Of a DNA stretch of 45,515 nucleotides, positions 1 to 45,515 are shown one piece after another. How positions within the stretch are numbered: the first letter of the stretch is position 1; each line of letters starts with the position of its first letter. The notes under the pieces are model-generated. The model saw only the letters and a program-made list of their open reading frames with translations, searched no databases and was not told where the DNA came from. The translations under genes and the position numbers were made by a program. The stretch comes from a virus: the IMG/VR virus record IMGVR_UViG_3300045988_006734; one strand, 5' to 3'.

Positions 1-73
1 AATCTCTGATTCCGCTTCCAATTTCGCCAATGTCAACAACAACGGTAATGCGAACTACAACAACGCTTCCAAT
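1..73. repeat. Terminal direct repeat, identical to 45443-45515 (assembly overlap of a circular or circularly permuted genome)
   Basis: aatctctgattccgcttccaatttcgccaatgtcaacaacaacggtaatgcgaactacaacaacgcttccaat is read at both ends of the window. Confidence 0.95.
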
Positions 74-115
74 GCTAACGGTGTCCGCCCCGATTTCGAT
101 TCCGCAGTTAAATAG
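2..115 (+). CDS. avd: 3' end of the avd-like ORF that starts at 44928 and wraps the junction; this part is encoded by the DGR template repeat (..ISDSASNFANVNNNGNANYNNASNANGVRPDFDSAVK*)
   Basis: The frame continues from 44928 through the 73-bp overlap to TAG at 113-115. Confidence 0.6.
   Translation: MSDSASNFANVNNNGNANYNNASNANGVRPDFDSAVK
10..97 (+). repeat. DGR template repeat (TR), 88 bp, 24 adenines, 11 AAY codons; its first 64 bp are also seen at 45452-45515 because of the terminal overlap
   Basis: Aligns base for base with 44782-44869 and 17305-17392. Mismatches fall almost only at TR adenines. It lies immediately upstream of the RT. Confidence 0.9.
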
Positions 116-135
116 CCTTTTGAGCGTTCTGCGGA
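101..135 (+). promoter_or_regulatory. Hairpin in the TR-RT spacer (TCCGCAG N21 CTGCGGA), a candidate structured part of the DGR RNA
   Basis: 7-bp perfect inverted repeat at 101-107 / 129-135. Confidence 0.4.
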
Positions 136-150
136 CAGAGAAAGGAGAGA

Positions 151-1362
151 TTGTCCTTCCTTATGGTAAATGCTAAACACGACACCACCTCTTACGAGAG
201 CTGTGGTTATAAGCGTGAAATATTTGATGGTAATGCACTGTATGACGCTTTTGTGAGGGCAAAACAAGGAAGTGACTGGAAACCACAGGTACAGCAATTT
301 GAAATGACCTATCTACTGAGTCTTTCCAAAATGCAAAAGGAGCTTGAAAGTAAAACTTACAAATTCCTTCCCTCACAGGAGTTCGTACTGAACGAAAGAG
401 GTAAAACGAGGTATATCAGCGGTGAGCAGATACCCGATAGGGTTGTAAAACACAGTCTTTGTGATGAAGTCTTGTCTCCCGAAATTCGCAAGTATCTGAT
501 TTACGATAACGGAGCGAGTCTCAAGGGTAAAGGGATTGACTTCACGAGACGTAGGCTACTGGTTCACCTTCGGAAGTATTACGCACAACACAAGTCCAAC
601 GATGGTTATATCCTGTTGATTGACTTCTCGAAATACTACGACAATATCCGGCATGACAAGCTCATGGAGTTGTTTGAGAAGTACATTCACGATGAAACCG
701 CACTGTGGCTTCTGCGTGTGATCGTAGACCGCTCGAAGGTAGATGTTTCGTACATGAGTGACGAGGAGTACGAGAACTGCATGGACGCACTCTTTAACTC
801 CCTTGAGCATTCGCAGATGGATAGGAGTCTTCTTACAGGCGAAAAGTTCATGGCGAAGCACTTGAACATCGGAGACCAAGTGGCACAGGTAGCCGGGATA
901 GCCTACCCGATACCCATTGACAATTATATAAAGATTGTCCGTGGTGTGAAATTCTACGGTAGGTATATGGACGATAGTTATGTGATTCATGAAAGCAAGG
1001 AGTATTTGGAAGAACTTCTGCAAGATATTATCCGCATTGCGGCGAGTATCGGTATCACAGTCAACACCCGAAAGACCCGGATATGCAAACTGTCTGAGTA
1101 TTGGAGATTCTTACAGACCCAATACTCCCTCACCGACACTGGACGAGTCATTCAGAAAATCAATCCGAAGCGTATCACCTGTATGCGCCGGAAAATGAAG
1201 AAGCTCGCCTATATCCTTCCTCCGAAGGAATTTGAGGACTGGTATCAGTCGTGGTTTCAAAACCACTACAAGATCATGAGCAAACAGCAAAGGCTCAATA
1301 TGAACACGTTATTCAATGAATTGAAGGAGGTAAACGCAAATGTACACAATCACACTGGCTGA
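151..1362 (+). CDS. DGR-type reverse transcriptase (alternative ATG start at 163)
   Basis: RT motifs LLIDFSKYYDNI, YGRYMDDSYV (YxDD box) and NIGDQVAQ (similar to the DGR-RT IGxxxSQ motif). Adjacent to the TR. Confidence 0.9.
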   Translation: MSFLMVNAKHDTTSYESCGYKREIFDGNALYDAFVRAKQGSDWKPQVQQFEMTYLLSLSKMQKELESKTYKFLPSQEFVLNERGKTRYISGEQIPDRVVKHSLCDEVLSPEIRKYLIYDNGASLKGKGIDFTRRRLLVHLRKYYAQHKSNDGYILLIDFSKYYDNIRHDKLMELFEKYIHDETALWLLRVIVDRSKVDVSYMSDEEYENCMDALFNSLEHSQMDRSLLTGEKFMAKHLNIGDQVAQVAGIAYPIPIDNYIKIVRGVKFYGRYMDDSYVIHESKEYLEELLQDIIRIAASIGITVNTRKTRICKLSEYWRFLQTQYSLTDTGRVIQKINPKRITCMRRKMKKLAYILPPKEFEDWYQSWFQNHYKIMSKQQRLNMNTLFNELKEVNANVHNHTG

Positions 1363-15420: not shown

Positions 15421-15713
15421 TGAGAACTTTCTATTCCGAATATGTACAGCACTGCATGAGATTTTATGCGAGACACCCTCGCCCTAAGTTCCGCAGTGAC
15501 GCAGACAAGCAGAACTGGAACGCTTGTGACAGTGCTATGAAGGGTTTCACCGATAAGGAACAGGACATTCTCATGACTGTCTACCGTGAAGGTGACACCA
15601 TTCCCGACAACGTGTATAAGGTGTCTGTTGATCGCAACATCAAACAGGACACCATTTGGAAGCTCATTAACGAGCTGGAACGCAAGGTTGCAAAGAGGAG
15701 GAACTTGATTTGA
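15420..15713 (+). CDS. Putative sigma-70 region-4-like / late transcription regulator
   Basis: 97 aa; LTDKEQDILMTVY-type segment and a basic C-terminal helix. Assignment is weak. Confidence 0.3.
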   Translation: MRTFYSEYVQHCMRFYARHPRPKFRSDADKQNWNACDSAMKGFTDKEQDILMTVYREGDTIPDNVYKVSVDRNIKQDTIWKLINELERKVAKRRNLI

Positions 15714-16498
15714 CACACTACGAGAACATACCCGGCGAGCTGAAAGAACTGAATCAATGGGTCTGTACTCGTAGTGACAGTAAAGTTCCGATGAAAGCAT
15801 TCGAGAATGAAGCCGCTTCCTCCACCAACCCTCAGACATGGGCTACCTTCGACATGGCGAATGACGCTGTGTCGAAGGGGTTCTATGACTACTGCGGCTT
15901 TGTCTTTGCTGACAACGGTTTTGTCGGCATTGACATTGACACCGGGTATGACGAGGAAGGTTTCATGACACCGCTTGCCGCAGACATTATCGGCAAGTGT
16001 GCGAGCTACACGGAGAAATCCAAAAGCGGCAGAGGTTTTCACATTCTCCTCAGAGGTACGCTTCCCTTCAAGGGCAAGAACAACCTCGCCGGAGTTGAGA
16101 TATACAAGTCCGCCCGGTACTTCATCATGACAGGCGATACGCTCCTCTATCGTAATATCGAGGAGAACCAAGAAGCGATTGATTATGTGGTGGAAAAATA
16201 CTTCCCGGAGACACGGCAAGAGAAAGAGACCTCCGAGTACGGTGGTCGAATCTACTCCCCGATATGGGAACTGCCGGAGAACAATCGTATCAAGCTCCGC
16301 CCTGTCTACCCTCGAATCCCGGACGGAAGCCGTAATATCTGTCTGACCTCTCTCGCTGGTATGCTTCACAATCAAGGGTACAGCAAACAGCAGATATACG
16401 ATGAACTTATTTACTGTAACACGGTTGCCTGTGAACCTCCGCTCGACAGGAACGAGCTGAGAACGATCTGCAACAGTGTTACCCGGTACAAACGATGA
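15710..16498 (+). CDS. Bifunctional primase-polymerase (prim-pol) with PriCT-like C-terminus; TTG start
   Basis: GFVGIDIDTGYDEEG, KSGRGFHILL, YFIMTGD motifs; C-terminal PLDRNELRTICNSVTRY. Confidence 0.7.
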   Translation: MTHYENIPGELKELNQWVCTRSDSKVPMKAFENEAASSTNPQTWATFDMANDAVSKGFYDYCGFVFADNGFVGIDIDTGYDEEGFMTPLAADIIGKCASYTEKSKSGRGFHILLRGTLPFKGKNNLAGVEIYKSARYFIMTGDTLLYRNIEENQEAIDYVVEKYFPETRQEKETSEYGGRIYSPIWELPENNRIKLRPVYPRIPDGSRNICLTSLAGMLHNQGYSKQQIYDELIYCNTVACEPPLDRNELRTICNSVTRYKR

Positions 16499-16840: not shown

Positions 16841-17410
16841 ATGATGGTTAAGAGAAGTGAAATGGTGGAAACCACCAACTACAACGTAGAGGACATTATC
16901 TCCTTCGAGCTGGCTGACGGTGAGAAGGTAGAAGCAATGGCTATGAAACAGGAAGCAGACGGTATGATCTTCATGCTGGTGGACTGCTTGAAGGACGAGG
17001 AGTGCATGAACGAGGAAGACTCCAACCGTGGCGGCTGGGACGCAAGCGATTTGCGTGTGAAGCTGAATGGTGAAATTCTCGAACGCTTCCCGGCTGAAAT
17101 CCGTGAGCAGATGGTCGCATTCGCCAACGGCGATATGCTGAGACTGCCTACCGAGAAGGAAATCTTCGGTGTCAATGAGTACGGCGAGACTGAGGACGAA
17201 TCCGTTGAGCAGTTCGCTCCTATGAAGCTCCGCAGAAACCGTATCGCATTTCAAGGTCACAACGGTAATTGGGAATGGTACTGGCTGGCAAACAAGCATA
17301 AGCGTTCCGCTTCCATTTTCGCCGGTGTCGCCGACACCGGTATTGCGGCCTGCGGCAACGCTTCCCTTGCTCGCGGTGTCCGCCCCGCTTTCAAAATCAA
17401 GAATCTGTAA
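16841..17410 (+). CDS. DGR target protein 2: 189-aa DUF6273-like (C-type-lectin/FGE-fold) protein with VR2 at its C-terminus; no signal peptide or TM helix
   Basis: WDASDLRVKLNGEILERFP..LRLPTEKEIFG..WYWLANK..GVRPAFKI; SD AAGGAGG 7 nt upstream of ATG 16841. Confidence 0.85.
   Translation: MMVKRSEMVETTNYNVEDIISFELADGEKVEAMAMKQEADGMIFMLVDCLKDEECMNEEDSNRGGWDASDLRVKLNGEILERFPAEIREQMVAFANGDMLRLPTEKEIFGVNEYGETEDESVEQFAPMKLRRNRIAFQGHNGNWEWYWLANKHKRSASIFAGVADTGIAACGNASLARGVRPAFKIKNL
17305..17392 (+). repeat. DGR variable repeat VR2
   Basis: 88/88 positions align with the TR; 18 differences, all at TR adenines. Confidence 0.9.
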
Positions 17411-17412
17411 TC

Positions 17413-17433
17413 TGCGCCCCCTTGTGGGGCGCA
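17413..17433 (+). promoter_or_regulatory. GC hairpin downstream of VR2 (TGCGCCCC cttgt GGGGCGCA)
   Basis: 8-bp stem and 5-nt loop. The 25-nt block 17409-17433 is identical to 44884-44908, downstream of VR1. Confidence 0.85.
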
Positions 17434-17461: not shown

Positions 17462-17983
17462 GTGGCTTACTATATGAATAACAACAGAGACATTGAGTGC
17501 TACAGAGGTGACATTTTCTATATCGCCAACAGCGGTCATGTGGTCGGCTCTGAGCAGAGATCGGGAAGACCCGGTATCATCGTCTCGAATGATTTGGCGA
17601 ACAAGCACTCACCCAACGTGTCAGTCGTATATCTGACTTCACAGGAGAAGAAACCTCTGCCGACTCACGTTGATGTGATCTGCAAAGTCCCTTCTACTGC
17701 TCTGTGCGAGAACATTCAGACCGTATCGAAGGAACGTCTCGGTGACTTCGTGAAGTCCTGTACTACCTCCGAAATGGAAAGAGTCGATAAGGCTATCTGT
17801 CATGCCCTCGGTCTCACCGTTCCGGCGGAAGAACCTACTATCACAGAGGAAGATTTGAAAGCTCTCAAGGAAGCACCTGTTCAGCTCATGCCTGTCGAAC
17901 CTACGGCGGCTGAGATTGAGCGTAACCTGTACAAGAACCTGTACGAGCAGTTGCTTGACCGACTGACAGGTAAGTCCGCATGA
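17462..17983 (+). CDS. MazF/PemK-family endoribonuclease toxin with a ~55-aa C-terminal extension (GTG start)
   Basis: RGDIFYI..VVGSEQRSGRPGIIVSND..NKHSPNVSVVYLTS..LPTHVDV..ALCENIQTVSKERL closely parallels the Bacillus EndoA/MazF pattern. Confidence 0.85.
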   Translation: MAYYMNNNRDIECYRGDIFYIANSGHVVGSEQRSGRPGIIVSNDLANKHSPNVSVVYLTSQEKKPLPTHVDVICKVPSTALCENIQTVSKERLGDFVKSCTTSEMERVDKAICHALGLTVPAEEPTITEEDLKALKEAPVQLMPVEPTAAEIERNLYKNLYEQLLDRLTGKSA

Positions 17984-19508: not shown

Positions 19509-19684
19509 TGAACGAAATTATCTGCCCTCTCCTCACTACCAACACGGTAGTTGAGGAAGACGGAACAGTCAAAATAGGTACTCAGCCTGTGTACTGCATT
19601 GAATGTCAGTGTGCATGGTGGGTCGAAGATAAACAGAAATGTGCGGTAGCGGCGATTGGAGGTGAGCGTCATGGTAAGCGATAG
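19508..19684 (+). CDS. 58-aa Cys-containing mini-protein
   Basis: MNEIICPLL..VYCIECQCAWWVEDKQKC; TGATG overlap with the previous gene. Confidence 0.35.
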   Translation: MNEIICPLLTTNTVVEEDGTVKIGTQPVYCIECQCAWWVEDKQKCAVAAIGGERHGKR

Positions 19685-21158
19685 AGAATTGTTCGAGCTT
19701 CGTAATGGTCGAGTAATCATGGACGAAGACCTCTCCGAGAAAATGTACATCATCAAGGAGTACCACCCGGAGAGAGCGGACGAGACCAGCTCTGGCTTTG
19801 AATGGTCGGAAATGGGTATGGCTAACCTGTTCGGTATGCTCTACAACAGAGAGGTTCGCTACTGTACCGAGCATAAGAGCTGGTACACCTACCATGAAGG
19901 TGCGTGGCGCAAGGACGAGGGTGCAATCCTCGTGTCCGAGAAGATCAAGGACTTTGTTCGTCTCATGATTCTCTACTGCGGTGAGATTGTAGACGATGAT
20001 CTCCGCAAGAGCTACACTGCATTCGTCAATAAGATGGGTGACAGACGTATGCGAGACCGAATCCTCAAGGACGCTACAGGTGAGCTTCGTATCTCCGCTG
20101 TGGAGTTTGACGCTAACCCCTACCTCATTAACTGTCTGAATGGTACATACTCTCTCGAAGACTTCTCCTTCCGGGAAGCTCGCTGGGACGATTTTCTCAC
20201 CATGCAGACCAACTTCCGACACACTATTCGCAGAGACATTAAGTGTAAGCGTTGGGAGAAGTTCATTGACGAGGTTACACAGGGAGACAAGGACAAGGCG
20301 GATTTCCTTCAACGTGCGCTCGGCTACTCCATGCTCGGCATGAGCAACGAGGAGTGTATGTTCATTCTCCACGGCAAGACTACCCGAAACGGTAAGTCCA
20401 CTCTGCTCAACACCATCGAATTTATGCTCGGTGACTATGCGAAGGTTGCCCCGGTAGGTATGATCTGCCGTGGTGACAGGCAGAAGGACGCAGAAGCCGC
20501 TTCTCCTACTCTCGCCGGACTCAAGGGCAAACGCTTTGTCACCATGTCCGAGTCGAACGAGTATGGCAAGCTGGACGAGGAGAAAATCAAACAGCTCACA
20601 GGTGGCGAGGAAATCTCGGCTCGTGCGCTGTACCAGTCAGCGATTACCTACAAGCCGCAGTTCACCCTTTGGCTCTCCTGTAATGACCTTCCGATGGTTA
20701 CAGACAAGTCCCTGTTTGCTTCCCAGCGTATCAAAGTGATCGAGTTCAACCGCCACTTCAAGCCGGAAGAACAGGACACTCACCTCAAGGACGAGCTGAC
20801 TTCTACGGAAGCAATGAGCGGCATTTTCATGTGGCTGGTTCGTGGCTACATTAAGTATAAGGAAAACGGACTCAAGATGGCGGACTCTCTGACTGAGGTA
20901 GTCACAAAGTATGAGCGTGACAACGACCTCGTGTTGCAGTTCCTTGAGAACCGCTGTGTCCGCAATGAGGACGTGAACATCAAGGCGAAAGACCTTTACA
21001 ATGCTTTCAAGCTGTGGGCGAAATCCGAAGGAGCTTACGTCCTCTCTGCTCGAAAGTTCAACTCCGAAATGGAACGACACCCGGAATGGTTCGACAGAAA
21101 ATCGACTTCCAGCGGTTTCATGATCTATTGGGGACTCAAGCTCAAGGAGGTGGTGTAA
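19671..21158 (+). CDS. D5-N / P4-family primase-helicase (SF3 NTPase)
   Basis: ANPYLINCLNGTYSL, Walker A HGKTTRNGKST and FVTMSESNE patterns typical of phage/plasmid primase P4 C-terminal domains. Confidence 0.8.
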   Translation: MVSDRELFELRNGRVIMDEDLSEKMYIIKEYHPERADETSSGFEWSEMGMANLFGMLYNREVRYCTEHKSWYTYHEGAWRKDEGAILVSEKIKDFVRLMILYCGEIVDDDLRKSYTAFVNKMGDRRMRDRILKDATGELRISAVEFDANPYLINCLNGTYSLEDFSFREARWDDFLTMQTNFRHTIRRDIKCKRWEKFIDEVTQGDKDKADFLQRALGYSMLGMSNEECMFILHGKTTRNGKSTLLNTIEFMLGDYAKVAPVGMICRGDRQKDAEAASPTLAGLKGKRFVTMSESNEYGKLDEEKIKQLTGGEEISARALYQSAITYKPQFTLWLSCNDLPMVTDKSLFASQRIKVIEFNRHFKPEEQDTHLKDELTSTEAMSGIFMWLVRGYIKYKENGLKMADSLTEVVTKYERDNDLVLQFLENRCVRNEDVNIKAKDLYNAFKLWAKSEGAYVLSARKFNSEMERHPEWFDRKSTSSGFMIYWGLKLKEVV

Positions 21159-43993: not shown

Positions 43994-44884
43994 ATGTCTA
44001 CTCTACCCATTGAAAATGCAAAGAAGTTTACGGACTTGTCCGTAATCACCGAAGCTCCCGACAATGCGGTACTGCTCATTCACGATGGCAACGGAGTCAA
44101 GCAGATTTCCGCCGCCAATCTGAAAAAGGACGTGAAGGGTCTTATCGACACCGCACAGGCAATGATTAACGCAATCGCTACTACTGGTGCTGGCGCACAC
44201 AACGCTATCTACCGTGGTAAGTCTCTCGGTTCTGCCGTAACCGAAGCTCAGTGGGCGGCAATCAAGGCTGGCACGTTCGATGATATGTATATCGGTGACT
44301 ACTGGACTATCGGTGGTGTCGTTTACCGCATTGCGGCATTCGATTACTACTACAAGACTGGTGACACTTCCTGTGAGACTCACCACATCACTCTTGTGCC
44401 GGACGGTAATATGTACACTCACGTCATGAACGATACGAACATCACCACTGGTGCGTATGTCGGTTCTAAGATGTACACCGAAGGTCTGACACAGGCAAAG
44501 ACTACGATCAACAGTGCGTTTGGCGAAGCGCACGTTCTGAACCATCGTCAGTATTTGAAGAATGCTACGACTGATGGTTACGAGTCCGGCGGTAGCTGGT
44601 ATGACTCCACTGTGGAACTCATGACCGAGCAGAATGTGTACGGCGGTAAGATTTTCGGTAACAGTTTGAACGGCACTGCGCTTGCGGCGAACTATACCGT
44701 AGATAAGAGTCAGTACCCTCTGTTCGCTTTCCGCCCCGACATGATTTCCAATAGAGCGTGGTTTTGGCTGAGAGACGTAGTTTCCGCTTCCCGTTTCGCC
44801 GATGTCGACGGCGACGGTAATGCGCACTGCTACCACGCTTACCTTGCTGGCGGTGTCCGCCCCGCTTTCTCCATTAAATCTTAA
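43994..44884 (+). CDS. DGR target protein 1: tail fibre / receptor-binding protein with a C-terminal CLec-fold VR1
   Basis: Last tail gene; C-terminus WFWLRDVVSASRFADVDGDGNAHCYHAYLAGGVRPAFSIKS. Confidence 0.85.
   Translation: MSTLPIENAKKFTDLSVITEAPDNAVLLIHDGNGVKQISAANLKKDVKGLIDTAQAMINAIATTGAGAHNAIYRGKSLGSAVTEAQWAAIKAGTFDDMYIGDYWTIGGVVYRIAAFDYYYKTGDTSCETHHITLVPDGNMYTHVMNDTNITTGAYVGSKMYTEGLTQAKTTINSAFGEAHVLNHRQYLKNATTDGYESGGSWYDSTVELMTEQNVYGGKIFGNSLNGTALAANYTVDKSQYPLFAFRPDMISNRAWFWLRDVVSASRFADVDGDGNAHCYHAYLAGGVRPAFSIKS
44782..44869 (+). repeat. DGR variable repeat VR1
   Basis: 88 positions align with the TR: 16 differences at TR adenines plus one non-adenine difference (TR C69 vs A44841). Confidence 0.9.
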
Positions 44885-44887
44885 ATC

Positions 44888-44908
44888 TGCGCCCCCTTGT
44901 GGGGCGCA
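44888..44908 (+). promoter_or_regulatory. GC hairpin downstream of VR1 (TGCGCCCC cttgt GGGGCGCA)
   Basis: Identical to 17413-17433. Confidence 0.85.
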
Positions 44909-44927: not shown

Positions 44928-45515
44928 ATGTCTGTATTGAAACGAAATCGGAAAGCGTCTCAGTTCGAGGTTTTCCACCATCTAAATAAACTGAGACGAG
45001 ATATTACCGATTTGCTCCTCCGTGACTTCGGTTACAGCTTCGAGAAAGCCGAGAAACGGCTTGAGAGAAGATTCAGCGGACGCAGTTACGAGGAACTTAC
45101 CGAAATGGAAAAAGGAGTCTACGACAGGCTCAAGAAAAGGTGGGAAGCGTTTGACGAGTGGTTCATCGAAGACCAGCGGAAGATCATCGTGGACTGTCTG
45201 AGGGACATTACCAAAGAGGTGTATATTGCGAACAGCATTTACCCTACTTGCCGGGAAGAACTCATTCAGCGCAGACTCCACCAAGACGAAGCGTTAGGTC
45301 AGTGCTACAGGCTCACCCAAGAGCTACAGTATGCGATTGAAACTCTCCCTGTGAACACCTACACTCAGTTCGGTGACGCAATACAGACAGAAATCAACCT
45401 CATAAAAGGTTGGAGAAAGTCTGACAACAAATTTCATAGGGCAATCTCTGATTCCGCTTCCAATTTCGCCAATGTCAACAACAACGGTAATGCGAACTAC
45501 AACAACGCTTCCAAT
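44928..45515 (+). CDS. avd: Avd-like accessory variability determinant ORF (partial in the window; continues at base 74 to the stop at 113-115; 209 aa in total)
   Basis: SD GGAGGT 8 nt upstream. Helical, basic protein (..IANSIYPTCREELIQRRLHQDEALGQCYRLTQELQYAIE..INLIKGWRKS) located between VR1 and the TR. Confidence 0.6.
   Translation, partial: MSVLKRNRKASQFEVFHHLNKLRRDITDLLLRDFGYSFEKAEKRLERRFSGRSYEELTEMEKGVYDRLKKRWEAFDEWFIEDQRKIIVDCLRDITKEVYIANSIYPTCREELIQRRLHQDEALGQCYRLTQELQYAIETLPVNTYTQFGDAIQTEINLIKGWRKSDNKFHRAISDSASNFANVNNNGNANYNNASN

Follow-up and report, generated by a model that had tools for sequence, protein, structure and literature searches.

The viral DNA stretch IMGVR_UViG_3300045988_006734 (45,515 nt; hereafter the window) carries a diversity-generating retroelement (DGR) whose template repeat (TR) lies inside a translated open reading frame (ORF). 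The question raised by this locus is whether a template that is also read as codons belongs to a new mechanism, or whether a familiar element has merely been packed in an unusual way. The locus is very probably an active, canonical DGR with an embedded template and with an RNA like that of the Bordetella prototype BPP-1, the tail which its avd-like ORF acquires from the template being incidental. The system is of a well-known kind and its packing is a curiosity, not a new mechanism. The peculiarity is one of compaction; the avd-like ORF has lost its own stop codon and reads through the 5' strand of a long-range RNA helix (P1), the TR and the 5' half of the hairpin that follows it (P2). What is new is a template translated as the tail of an Avd-like protein, a reverse transcriptase (RT) ORF that starts inside the spacer RNA, and a map of the DGR RNA that is backed by covariation.

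The ends of the window are an exact 73-bp terminal direct repeat (1-73 = 45443-45515), which leaves a unique length of 45,442 bp. Hence, the contig is circular or terminally redundant and, since 45443-45515 repeats 1-73, the avd-like ORF that runs off the end continues at position 74. The DGR cassette straddles these artificial ends with target gene 1 and its variable repeat (VR1), the avd-like ORF, the TR and the RT gene; target gene 2 with VR2 is remote. The locus was compared with related loci (labels L0xx; referred to below as relatives), among them 80 viral ones. The coordinates of all features are given in Table 1.

Template repeat, variable repeats and activity

An earlier reading of this DNA (the original prediction) had described an adenine-rich segment at 10-97 with 24 A and 11 AAY codons, aligning without gaps to two distant segments with 34 of the 35 differences on TR adenines, and had staked its case on the mismatches being adenine-specific. 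A recount gave the same figures and realignment the same pattern. The TR differs from VR1 at 17 positions, 16 of them TR adenines and the other a C69>A change, and from VR2 at 18 positions, all of them TR adenines (34/35 in all; hypergeometric P for at least 34 of 35 = 6e-24). The adenine-biased pattern is repeated in about 60 relatives. No further TR/VR copy was found on either strand of the window, and a third VR or a minus-strand VR was rejected on that ground.

Both VRs lie at the 3' ends of ORFs and stop 15-18 nt short of the stop codon. The second target matches DUF6273, which has been reported as a DGR target domain (PMC11792537); the DUF6273 match of the first is weak (0.006). Both VRs are followed by a GC-rich hairpin, and none follows the TR. 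In the relatives the stem sequence of this hairpin varies and its complementarity is retained.

Position 93 is an A in the TR and a C in both VRs of the window. The same TR A and VR C were found in 64 of 64 TR-VR pairs of the relatives and also in Acutalibacter phage Fontainebleau, and the sequence GATTTC (92-97) is invariant in the TR of the relatives. Since the A/C pair is fixed in 64/64 cases, A93 is not an ordinary mutagenised site but a fixed difference between the initiation of mutagenic homology (IMH) sequence of the VR and its TR counterpart (IMH*), and it lies within the predicted template:primer region. The original prediction had suggested such a discriminator, and the 64 pairs support it.

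The element is active. In relatives with 98-100% identical flanks, 12-19 of the 88 positions in VR1 are changed with respect to the window, for the most part TR-A sites, and three loci (L049, L071 and L074) have one common TR, from which their VRs differ at 9, 17 and 7 A sites and at no other position. As near-identical relatives differ almost only at TR-A sites, it was concluded that diversification by a canonical DGR is ongoing.

A few relatives depart from the common arrangement. In L019 (671-758) and L058 (3531-3618), the TR itself carries A-to-N changes that match the bases of the same locus's VR, at 7 of 7 checkable sites in L019 and at 3 of 4 in L058; in L019 the mutable adenines fall from 24 to 16 and the Avd tail is altered accordingly. 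These matches point either to an assembly chimera or to gene conversion in which the VR served as donor for the 5' half of the TR. In L010 (2030-2045), a 21-nt deletion has removed the TR 3' end and the P2 5' strand and has lengthened the avd ORF to 222 aa; this copy is probably inactive or an assembly error. Decayed cassettes were seen in L076 and L088 (Moryella indoligenes DSM 19659 prophage), where a deletion fuses the avd 3' end to the C-terminal third of RT, the TR and the RT N-terminus being gone. In one protein (P0121, 406 aa), Avd with its TR tail is joined in frame to RT sequence, which takes over near residue 200.

The reverse transcriptase

The RT was found to match Pfam RVT_1 (1e-12) and phrog_1423 (7e-60). 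Its best solved relative is the DGR RT of BPP-1 (8ub7), with E-values of 1e-10 (single sequence) and 3e-13 (14-member profile); group II intron RTs rank lower (7e-8). No NCBIfam model passed in a search of the RT, the group II model reaching 62.7 bits against a cutoff of 300. Compared with the DGR-type motif 4 [ILV]GxxxSQ, the sequence IGDQVAQ keeps I, G and Q and has A in place of S. An insertion of about 45 aa relative to the BPP-1 RT (bRT) was observed at RT residues ~190-235 (window 730-870), between the motif 3 region and motif 4 (VDVSYMSDEEYENCMDALFNSLEH...), and it is well conserved in the relatives. The DGR core put forward in the original prediction is upheld by the adenine-specific mismatches, the ongoing diversification at TR adenines, the position of the RT nearest to 8ub7, and DUF6273-type VRs that are each followed by a GC hairpin.

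Structure of the DGR RNA

The fold of the DGR RNA spans 232 nt, with its 5' part within the avd ORF and its 3' part within the first 18 codons of RT. RNAalifold independently recovered P1 and P2 and, on a second alignment, P3, a stem-loop inside the RT ORF. The combined structure was evaluated on 45 distinct relatives, to which all pair counts refer. It was found that 98.7% of cells are paired, compared with 43-52% when the partners are slid, and that 24 of 40 pairs carry compensatory changes. Doubly changed cells number 177, against 43 +/- 6 after shuffling, and 0 of 500 shuffles reach the observed value. The compensatory pairs are spread over the helices, with 6/11 in P1 (11 pairs, 99.4% paired), 7/7 in P2, 2/2 in the mini-stem inside P2 and 9/12 in P3. 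The minimum free energy fold of the window's own sequence gives the same helices, with a single-sequence z-score of -1.08, which is not significant. Hence, the structural support rests on covariation, not on energy. An Rfam search of 1-400 gave nothing meaningful (snoR07 at E 0.32).

The 5' strand of P1, GGGCAATCTCT, is conserved as nucleotides in the relatives regardless of the avd frame and is complementary to AGAGATTGTCC. In P3, the encoded amino acids vary (TTSYESCG, TGGYDRSC, MTNYDCSH) and the pairing is retained; some relatives have in-frame insertions of 15 or 18 nt at this place, which build an extra hairpin. Between P1 and P3, the sequence GGTAAAT is invariant in the relatives while the context of the RT start codon varies, and the two stem pairs at 159-166 are invariant as well. 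A local alternative hairpin, GGAG(143-146)/TTCC(157-160), which would sequester GGAG, came up in the predictions only if the alignment lacked the P1 5' strand, and no covariation supports it.

The original prediction had placed a hairpin in a 53-nt spacer before the RT ORF. The hairpin is real, all seven stem pairs of P2 having compensatory changes, but the length of the spacer was underestimated; the functional spacer is about 120 nt long (98-217) and extends into the RT ORF. The proposed RT frame (151-1362) with YGRYMDDSYV and NIGDQVAQ is likewise open, and only its start has to be moved. The TTG at 151 is lost or out of frame in relatives and was rejected, whereas ATGGTAAAT with ATG 163, or an equivalent in-frame RT start, is present in all of them. 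No in-frame start exists between P3 and Met52, and indels within P3 are multiples of three. It was concluded from the conserved ATG, the lack of a later start before Met52 and the in-frame indels that the RT ORF starts at spacer nt 66 and that its codons 6-19 form P3. Because the ORF starts inside the spacer, the first ~18 codons are also a putative RT-binding RNA.

Table 1 Features of the DGR locus, in window coordinates
Feature	Position	Strand	Description
Target gene 1	43994..44884	+	296 aa, last gene of the tail module; VR1 44782-44869; GC block of the IMH 44852-44864
GC-rich hairpin CTGCGCCCCCTTGTGGGGCGCA	44887..44908	+	downstream of VR1
avd-like ORF, first part	44928..45515	+	ATG 44928, Shine-Dalgarno (SD) sequence GGAGG 8 nt upstream; runs off the window end
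avd-like ORF, end	1..115	+	through the TR in VR phase; TAG 113-115 inside the P2 loop
P1, 5' strand GGGCAATCTCT	45439..45449 (= 45439-45442 + 1-7)	+	ends 2 nt before the TR; pairs with 146-156
TR	10..97	+	88 nt; 24 A, 22 of them in 11 AAY codons; GC block GGTGTCCGCCCCG at 80-92
P2 hairpin	101..135	+	just 3' of the TR; 7-bp stem 101-107/129-135, internal 2-bp mini-stem, conserved loop TTAAATAG
GAGAAAGG	138..145	+	invariant; predicted pairing with TTTC 94-97 and CC 90-91; candidate primer strand
P1, 3' strand AGAGATTGTCC	146..156	+	RNAalifold and covariation
Small stem-loop and single strand	159..177	+	CC(159-160)/TTAT/GG(165-166) with the RT start codon; TAAAT GCTAAA 167-177, A-rich
RT ORF	163..1362	+	399 aa, start ATG 163; motifs IGDQVAQ, YMDD
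P3 stem-loop in the RT ORF	178..217	+	RT codons 6-19; CACG/CGTG, ACCA/TGGT, CTCT/AGAG, UACG tetraloop
Target gene 2	16841..17410	+	189 aa, DUF6273 (E 3.9e-9); VR2 17305-17392
GC-rich hairpin	17412..17433	+	downstream of VR2, identical to the hairpin after VR1

Proposed mechanism and points against it

A transcript that runs from the avd 3' end across the TR into the beginning of the RT gene would fold into a DGR RNA of about 230 nt. The 11-bp long-range helix P1 would join the 11 nt upstream of the TR to 146-156, closing off the TR and marking the stop of the cDNA, and P2, directly after the TR, would bind a pentamer of the Avd-like protein. The TR 3' end GATTTC would pair with GAGAAAGG, and an adenosine there (candidate positions 141-143) would prime the cDNA in cis. 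The small stem-loop, the A-rich single strand and the UACG-capped P3 may hold the RT. The RT-Avd complex would then copy the TR with misincorporation opposite adenines, and the cDNA would replace VR1 in a tail-fibre-like protein and VR2 in a small DUF6273 protein, with the common GC block and the GC hairpin behind each VR as guides. The TR itself would be shielded as a recipient by the fixed A93, in place of the C of the VRs, and by the missing hairpin. In this scheme, we infer from likeness to BPP-1 which partner binds which element, and the cis-priming and the stop function are likewise putative.

Several observations count against this reading. The six template:primer pairs (94-97 and 90-91 with 138-145) are predicted ones that are invariant or changed on one side only, and neither they nor the 2-bp stem at 159-166 show any compensatory change, so that covariation is uninformative on both. 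The assignment of binding partners, priming nucleotide and stop function has been transferred from BPP-1 by analogy. The RT gene lacks an SD-like sequence at the usual distance; the only one before it (AAAGGAG, invariant in the relatives) ends 16 nt upstream of ATG 163, compared with a spacing of 6-9 nt in other genes of the window. Since this sequence also takes part in the predicted pairing with the TR 3' end, folding of the RNA and translation of the RT may be mutually exclusive. Searches of the avd-like protein against Pfam and PDB sequences, with the single sequence and with a 63-member profile, gave no Avd match, and the Foldseek E-values of its Avd-like fold matches are weak (0.03-0.6). 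The fused avd-TR frame is kept in about 70 of the 80 viral relatives (~85% of close relatives). Indels at the junction are in frame in five cases and out of frame in three (binomial P ~0.09), which gives weak selection for the avd/TR reading frame a small probability.

Translation through the template

The avd-like ORF had been predicted to start at 44928, to enter the TR without a stop and in the phase of the VRs, and to give a product of 209 aa, all of which was reproduced by translation across the junction; the TR is read in the same codon phase as both VRs. The read-through could be functional, in that translation of avd through the P1 5' strand, the TR and the P2 loop would gate the use of the transcript as mRNA or as template, or would lead to cis-preferential assembly of the ribonucleoprotein (RNP). 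Such a function is considered unlikely. The retention of the fused frame in the viral relatives speaks for it. The 120 best-scoring protein homologues (208-219 aa) have it without exception, and among 150 clusters representing the wider, divergent family it recurs in 25, with linkers that differ. Further points in its favour are the predominance of multiples of three among the junction indels, the position of the avd stop codon within the conserved P2 loop, and the fact that in BPP-1 the C-terminus of Avd faces the looped-out TR. However, the TR is always open in the VR phase and, therefore, an upstream ORF without its own stop fuses to it in one phase of three; the frequency of 25/150 lies below this expectation, and the fusion is no commoner than chance phase would make it.

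Lineages in which the frame is broken speak against a function. Out-of-frame insertions (the +13-nt type of L049 and L079, and that of L025) make avd end with TGA or TAA at the TR edge, and in L093 a frameshift within the TR stops the ORF after about 10 TR codons. Diversification nevertheless continues where the shifted avd ends at the TR edge; clean A-specific VR differences were observed in L049, L071, L074, L080 and L025 (L079 and L093 had no part in the VR comparison). The ancestral-looking state is a separate avd stop. In L096 and L097, with 48-49% Avd identity, avd stops and 60-90 nt of non-coding sequence precede the P1 5' strand and the TR, and in phage Fontainebleau the avd stop lies exactly at the P1/TR boundary. 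Because these distant relatives stop avd before the TR, the fusion was taken to be derived. The TAG in the P2 loop is conserved even where avd uses another frame and is hence an RNA feature. The residues after the TR and the end of the ORF vary (209 to 231 aa), following the covarying P2 stem without any peptide pattern, and residues 178-209 of the tail have a predicted local distance difference test score (pLDDT) below 50 and are predicted to be disordered.

The Asn-rich tail that the TR adds to the Avd-like protein is, therefore, most likely a tolerated by-product and not a functional part. A regulatory or assembly device, in which ribosomes crossing the P1 5' strand, the TR and half of P2 decide whether the transcript serves as mRNA or as RT template, is correspondingly improbable. 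If it existed, ribosomes terminating in the P2 loop would release the new Avd right at the RNA that encodes it, which recalls the cis-preference of LINE-1, and the five TR-encoded tails might also touch the looped-out template.

The Avd-like protein

The designation avd-like is supported weakly but consistently. The protein matches the PHROG family phrog_3206, 'Avd protein of DGR', with an E-value of 6.5e-5 over residues 87-176. The AlphaFold2 model (pLDDT 74) is a helical bundle up to about residue 172, with long helices at 59-102, 109-136 and 142-165. The three best fold matches in BFVD are all named Avd-like (prob 0.98-1.0; template modelling (TM) score 0.58-0.74 on target), and the fold match in PDB is the S23-family four-helix protein 2rld (prob 0.99, TM 0.60 on target); the comparison of structures recommended by the original prediction thus points to an Avd-type bundle, at weak E-values. 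The remark that 209 aa is long for an Avd is accounted for by a core of ~173-176 aa followed by the disordered TR-encoded tail of ~35 aa.

It is very unlikely that the 209-aa ORF is something other than an Avd, be it an accessory protein of unrelated origin or non-coding RNA mistaken for a gene, in a DGR that uses some other helper. This alternative draws on the failure of the Pfam and PDB searches to return an Avd, S23 or Avd-chain match, on the isoelectric point of the core (8.7, compared with a reported Avd mean of ~9.5), and on a core that is about 45 aa longer than the 128-aa Avd of BPP-1. It is opposed by the PHROG, BFVD and 2rld matches, by the canonical place of the ORF between the target and TR-RT, and by its proper SD sequence and ATG. 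It is also opposed by the 768 homologous clusters of the protein, in which the core is strongly conserved.

That 10-97 is a third VR and the avd-like protein itself a DGR target can practically be dismissed: the segment does lie in frame at the 3' end of an ORF in the manner of a VR, and two relatives show A-to-N changes in it, but it has A wherever both other copies vary, is identical among relatives with differing VRs, carries the TR-specific A93 in all relatives, lacks a GC hairpin of the post-VR type and has the covarying RNA of P1, P2 and P3 and the RT as its neighbours, while the two odd relatives copy their own VR and so look like products of gene conversion or of chimeric assembly. A variable region of Avd at this place was accordingly rejected.

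Phage, host and genomic setting

The window belongs to a tailed, temperate phage that infects gut Clostridia (Lachnospiraceae and relatives). Among cultured Lachnospiraceae, prophage copies were found in the genera Oribacterium, Moryella and Dorea, for instance in Oribacterium sp. HCP28S3_H8 and Dorea ammoniilytica; further copies lie in metagenome-assembled genomes of Clostridia, and the strong SD sequences of the window's genes are compatible with a Bacillota host. A blastn search of 1-1400 against 50,697 phage records gave no match.

The DNA primase is apparently split, the ORF at 15710-16498 corresponding to positions 2-190 of phrog_1829 and the ORF at 19656-21158 to positions 319-757. The ~3.1 kb between the two halves contain DGR target 2, a MazF-like ORF (17462-17983, E 2e-36), and partial ORFs resembling a DNA methyltransferase and a thymidylate synthase. 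This stretch looks like an insertion island.

Implications for annotation

The arrangement shows that elements of a DGR RNA can sit within coding sequence and that base pairing of the RNA takes precedence over conservation of the protein in the first 18 RT codons. It also affects annotation. In this large avd-like family (at least 1389 homologues), the 'Avd' given by gene callers has about 35 aa too many and the TR is placed inside an ORF, so that DGR finders could call avd a target gene or miss the spacer. The fused and unfused avd lineages amount to a natural experiment on translation through a template.

Comparison with known systems

The structure of the BPP-1 RNP has been determined by cryo-electron microscopy (bRT-Avd:RNA, PDB 8ub7 series; Handa et al., bioRxiv 10.1101/2023.10.23.563531). 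In its RNA, the spacer (Sp) opens with a stem-loop that binds Avd, and this is followed by a TR:Sp template:primer duplex that leads to the priming adenosine. Two linker nucleotides and an 11-bp avd:Sp duplex, the 'cPRT Stop', come next, and the RNA ends with a 2-bp stem bearing a tetraloop, adenosines, a single-stranded 'thumb ring' and a long bRT-binding stem-loop (10.1101/2023.10.23.563531). The Avd-binding stem-loop and the avd:Sp duplex were predicted in 207 of 278 Avd-containing DGRs (10.1101/2023.10.23.563531).

The window shares with BPP-1 the gene order target/VR - avd - TR - spacer - RT, the adenine-specific transfer from TR to VR, the GC block, the IMH/IMH* difference and the GC hairpin after the VR. 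The RNA elements, with the template:primer pairing as a predicted one, come in the same order and sizes. By this likeness, P1 would be the analogue of the 'cPRT Stop' duplex, with GGGCAATCTCT as the avd strand, and P2 that of the Avd-binding stem-loop. From position, the GAGAAAGG region is likened to BPP-1 Sp47-56 with A56, the segment 159-177 to the cPRT-Stop stem-loop, the A-minor adenosines and the thumb ring, and P3 to the bRT-binding stem-loop, and putative roles are given to them on that basis. The differences are as follows. For BPP-1, a non-coding TR and a non-coding 140-nt spacer have been described, with the avd stop ahead of the TR, whereas in the window avd reads through the TR and the RT ORF starts at spacer nt 66. 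The TR has 88 nt instead of 134 nt, two targets are present, one of them 27 kb away, and RT motif 4 reads IGDQVAQ instead of IGSLTSQ. The Avd-like protein is extended at its N-terminus by ~85 aa, and its sequence shows no detectable resemblance to that of BPP-1 Avd.

Among phages of gut Clostridia, the Faecalibacterium prophages Lelie and CP11 (PMC11792537) are described as siphophages with two VRs in a large and a small target, both ending in DUF6273, as here; the likeness is one of description, and the text of that paper makes no mention of Avd, of a TR inside an ORF or of an RNA structure. In the collection of cultured phages, the only match was the Acutalibacter phage Fontainebleau (ON453893). 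It shows the same synteny of target, avd homologue (32% identity), TR and RT, and has GATTTC in the TR where the VR has GCTTTC; analogues of P1 and P2 and a UACG-type stem-loop are visible by eye. It differs in that the RT-homologous frame begins only past the P3-like stem-loop and in that the TR plus spacer (L098 3536-3830) is annotated as a separate hypothetical protein. The N-terminal region of the Fontainebleau RT is apparently frameshifted, MDNKLYDA... and the annotated RT lying in different frames, which could be a sequencing error or a pseudogene.

Cis-elements within coding sequence have a precedent in the 'group 3' DGRs of DiGReF (PMC3521204), in which the TR overlaps an annotated RT ORF. 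That overlap, noted for cataloguing purposes, concerns the RT ORF, whereas the TR of the window overlaps avd. In text searches and DGR surveys, the full-text matching being literal, no earlier report of an Avd whose C-terminus is an in-frame translation of a TR was found.

The RNA of the window is, in sum, a member of the known architecture, to which covariation support in a distant lineage is added. The map of P1, P2, the mini-stem and P3 comes from a DGR RNA that is very distant from the Bordetella prototype, and it appears that the full architecture of the BPP-1 RNP, beyond the two elements surveyed before, is conserved in phages of gut Clostridia.

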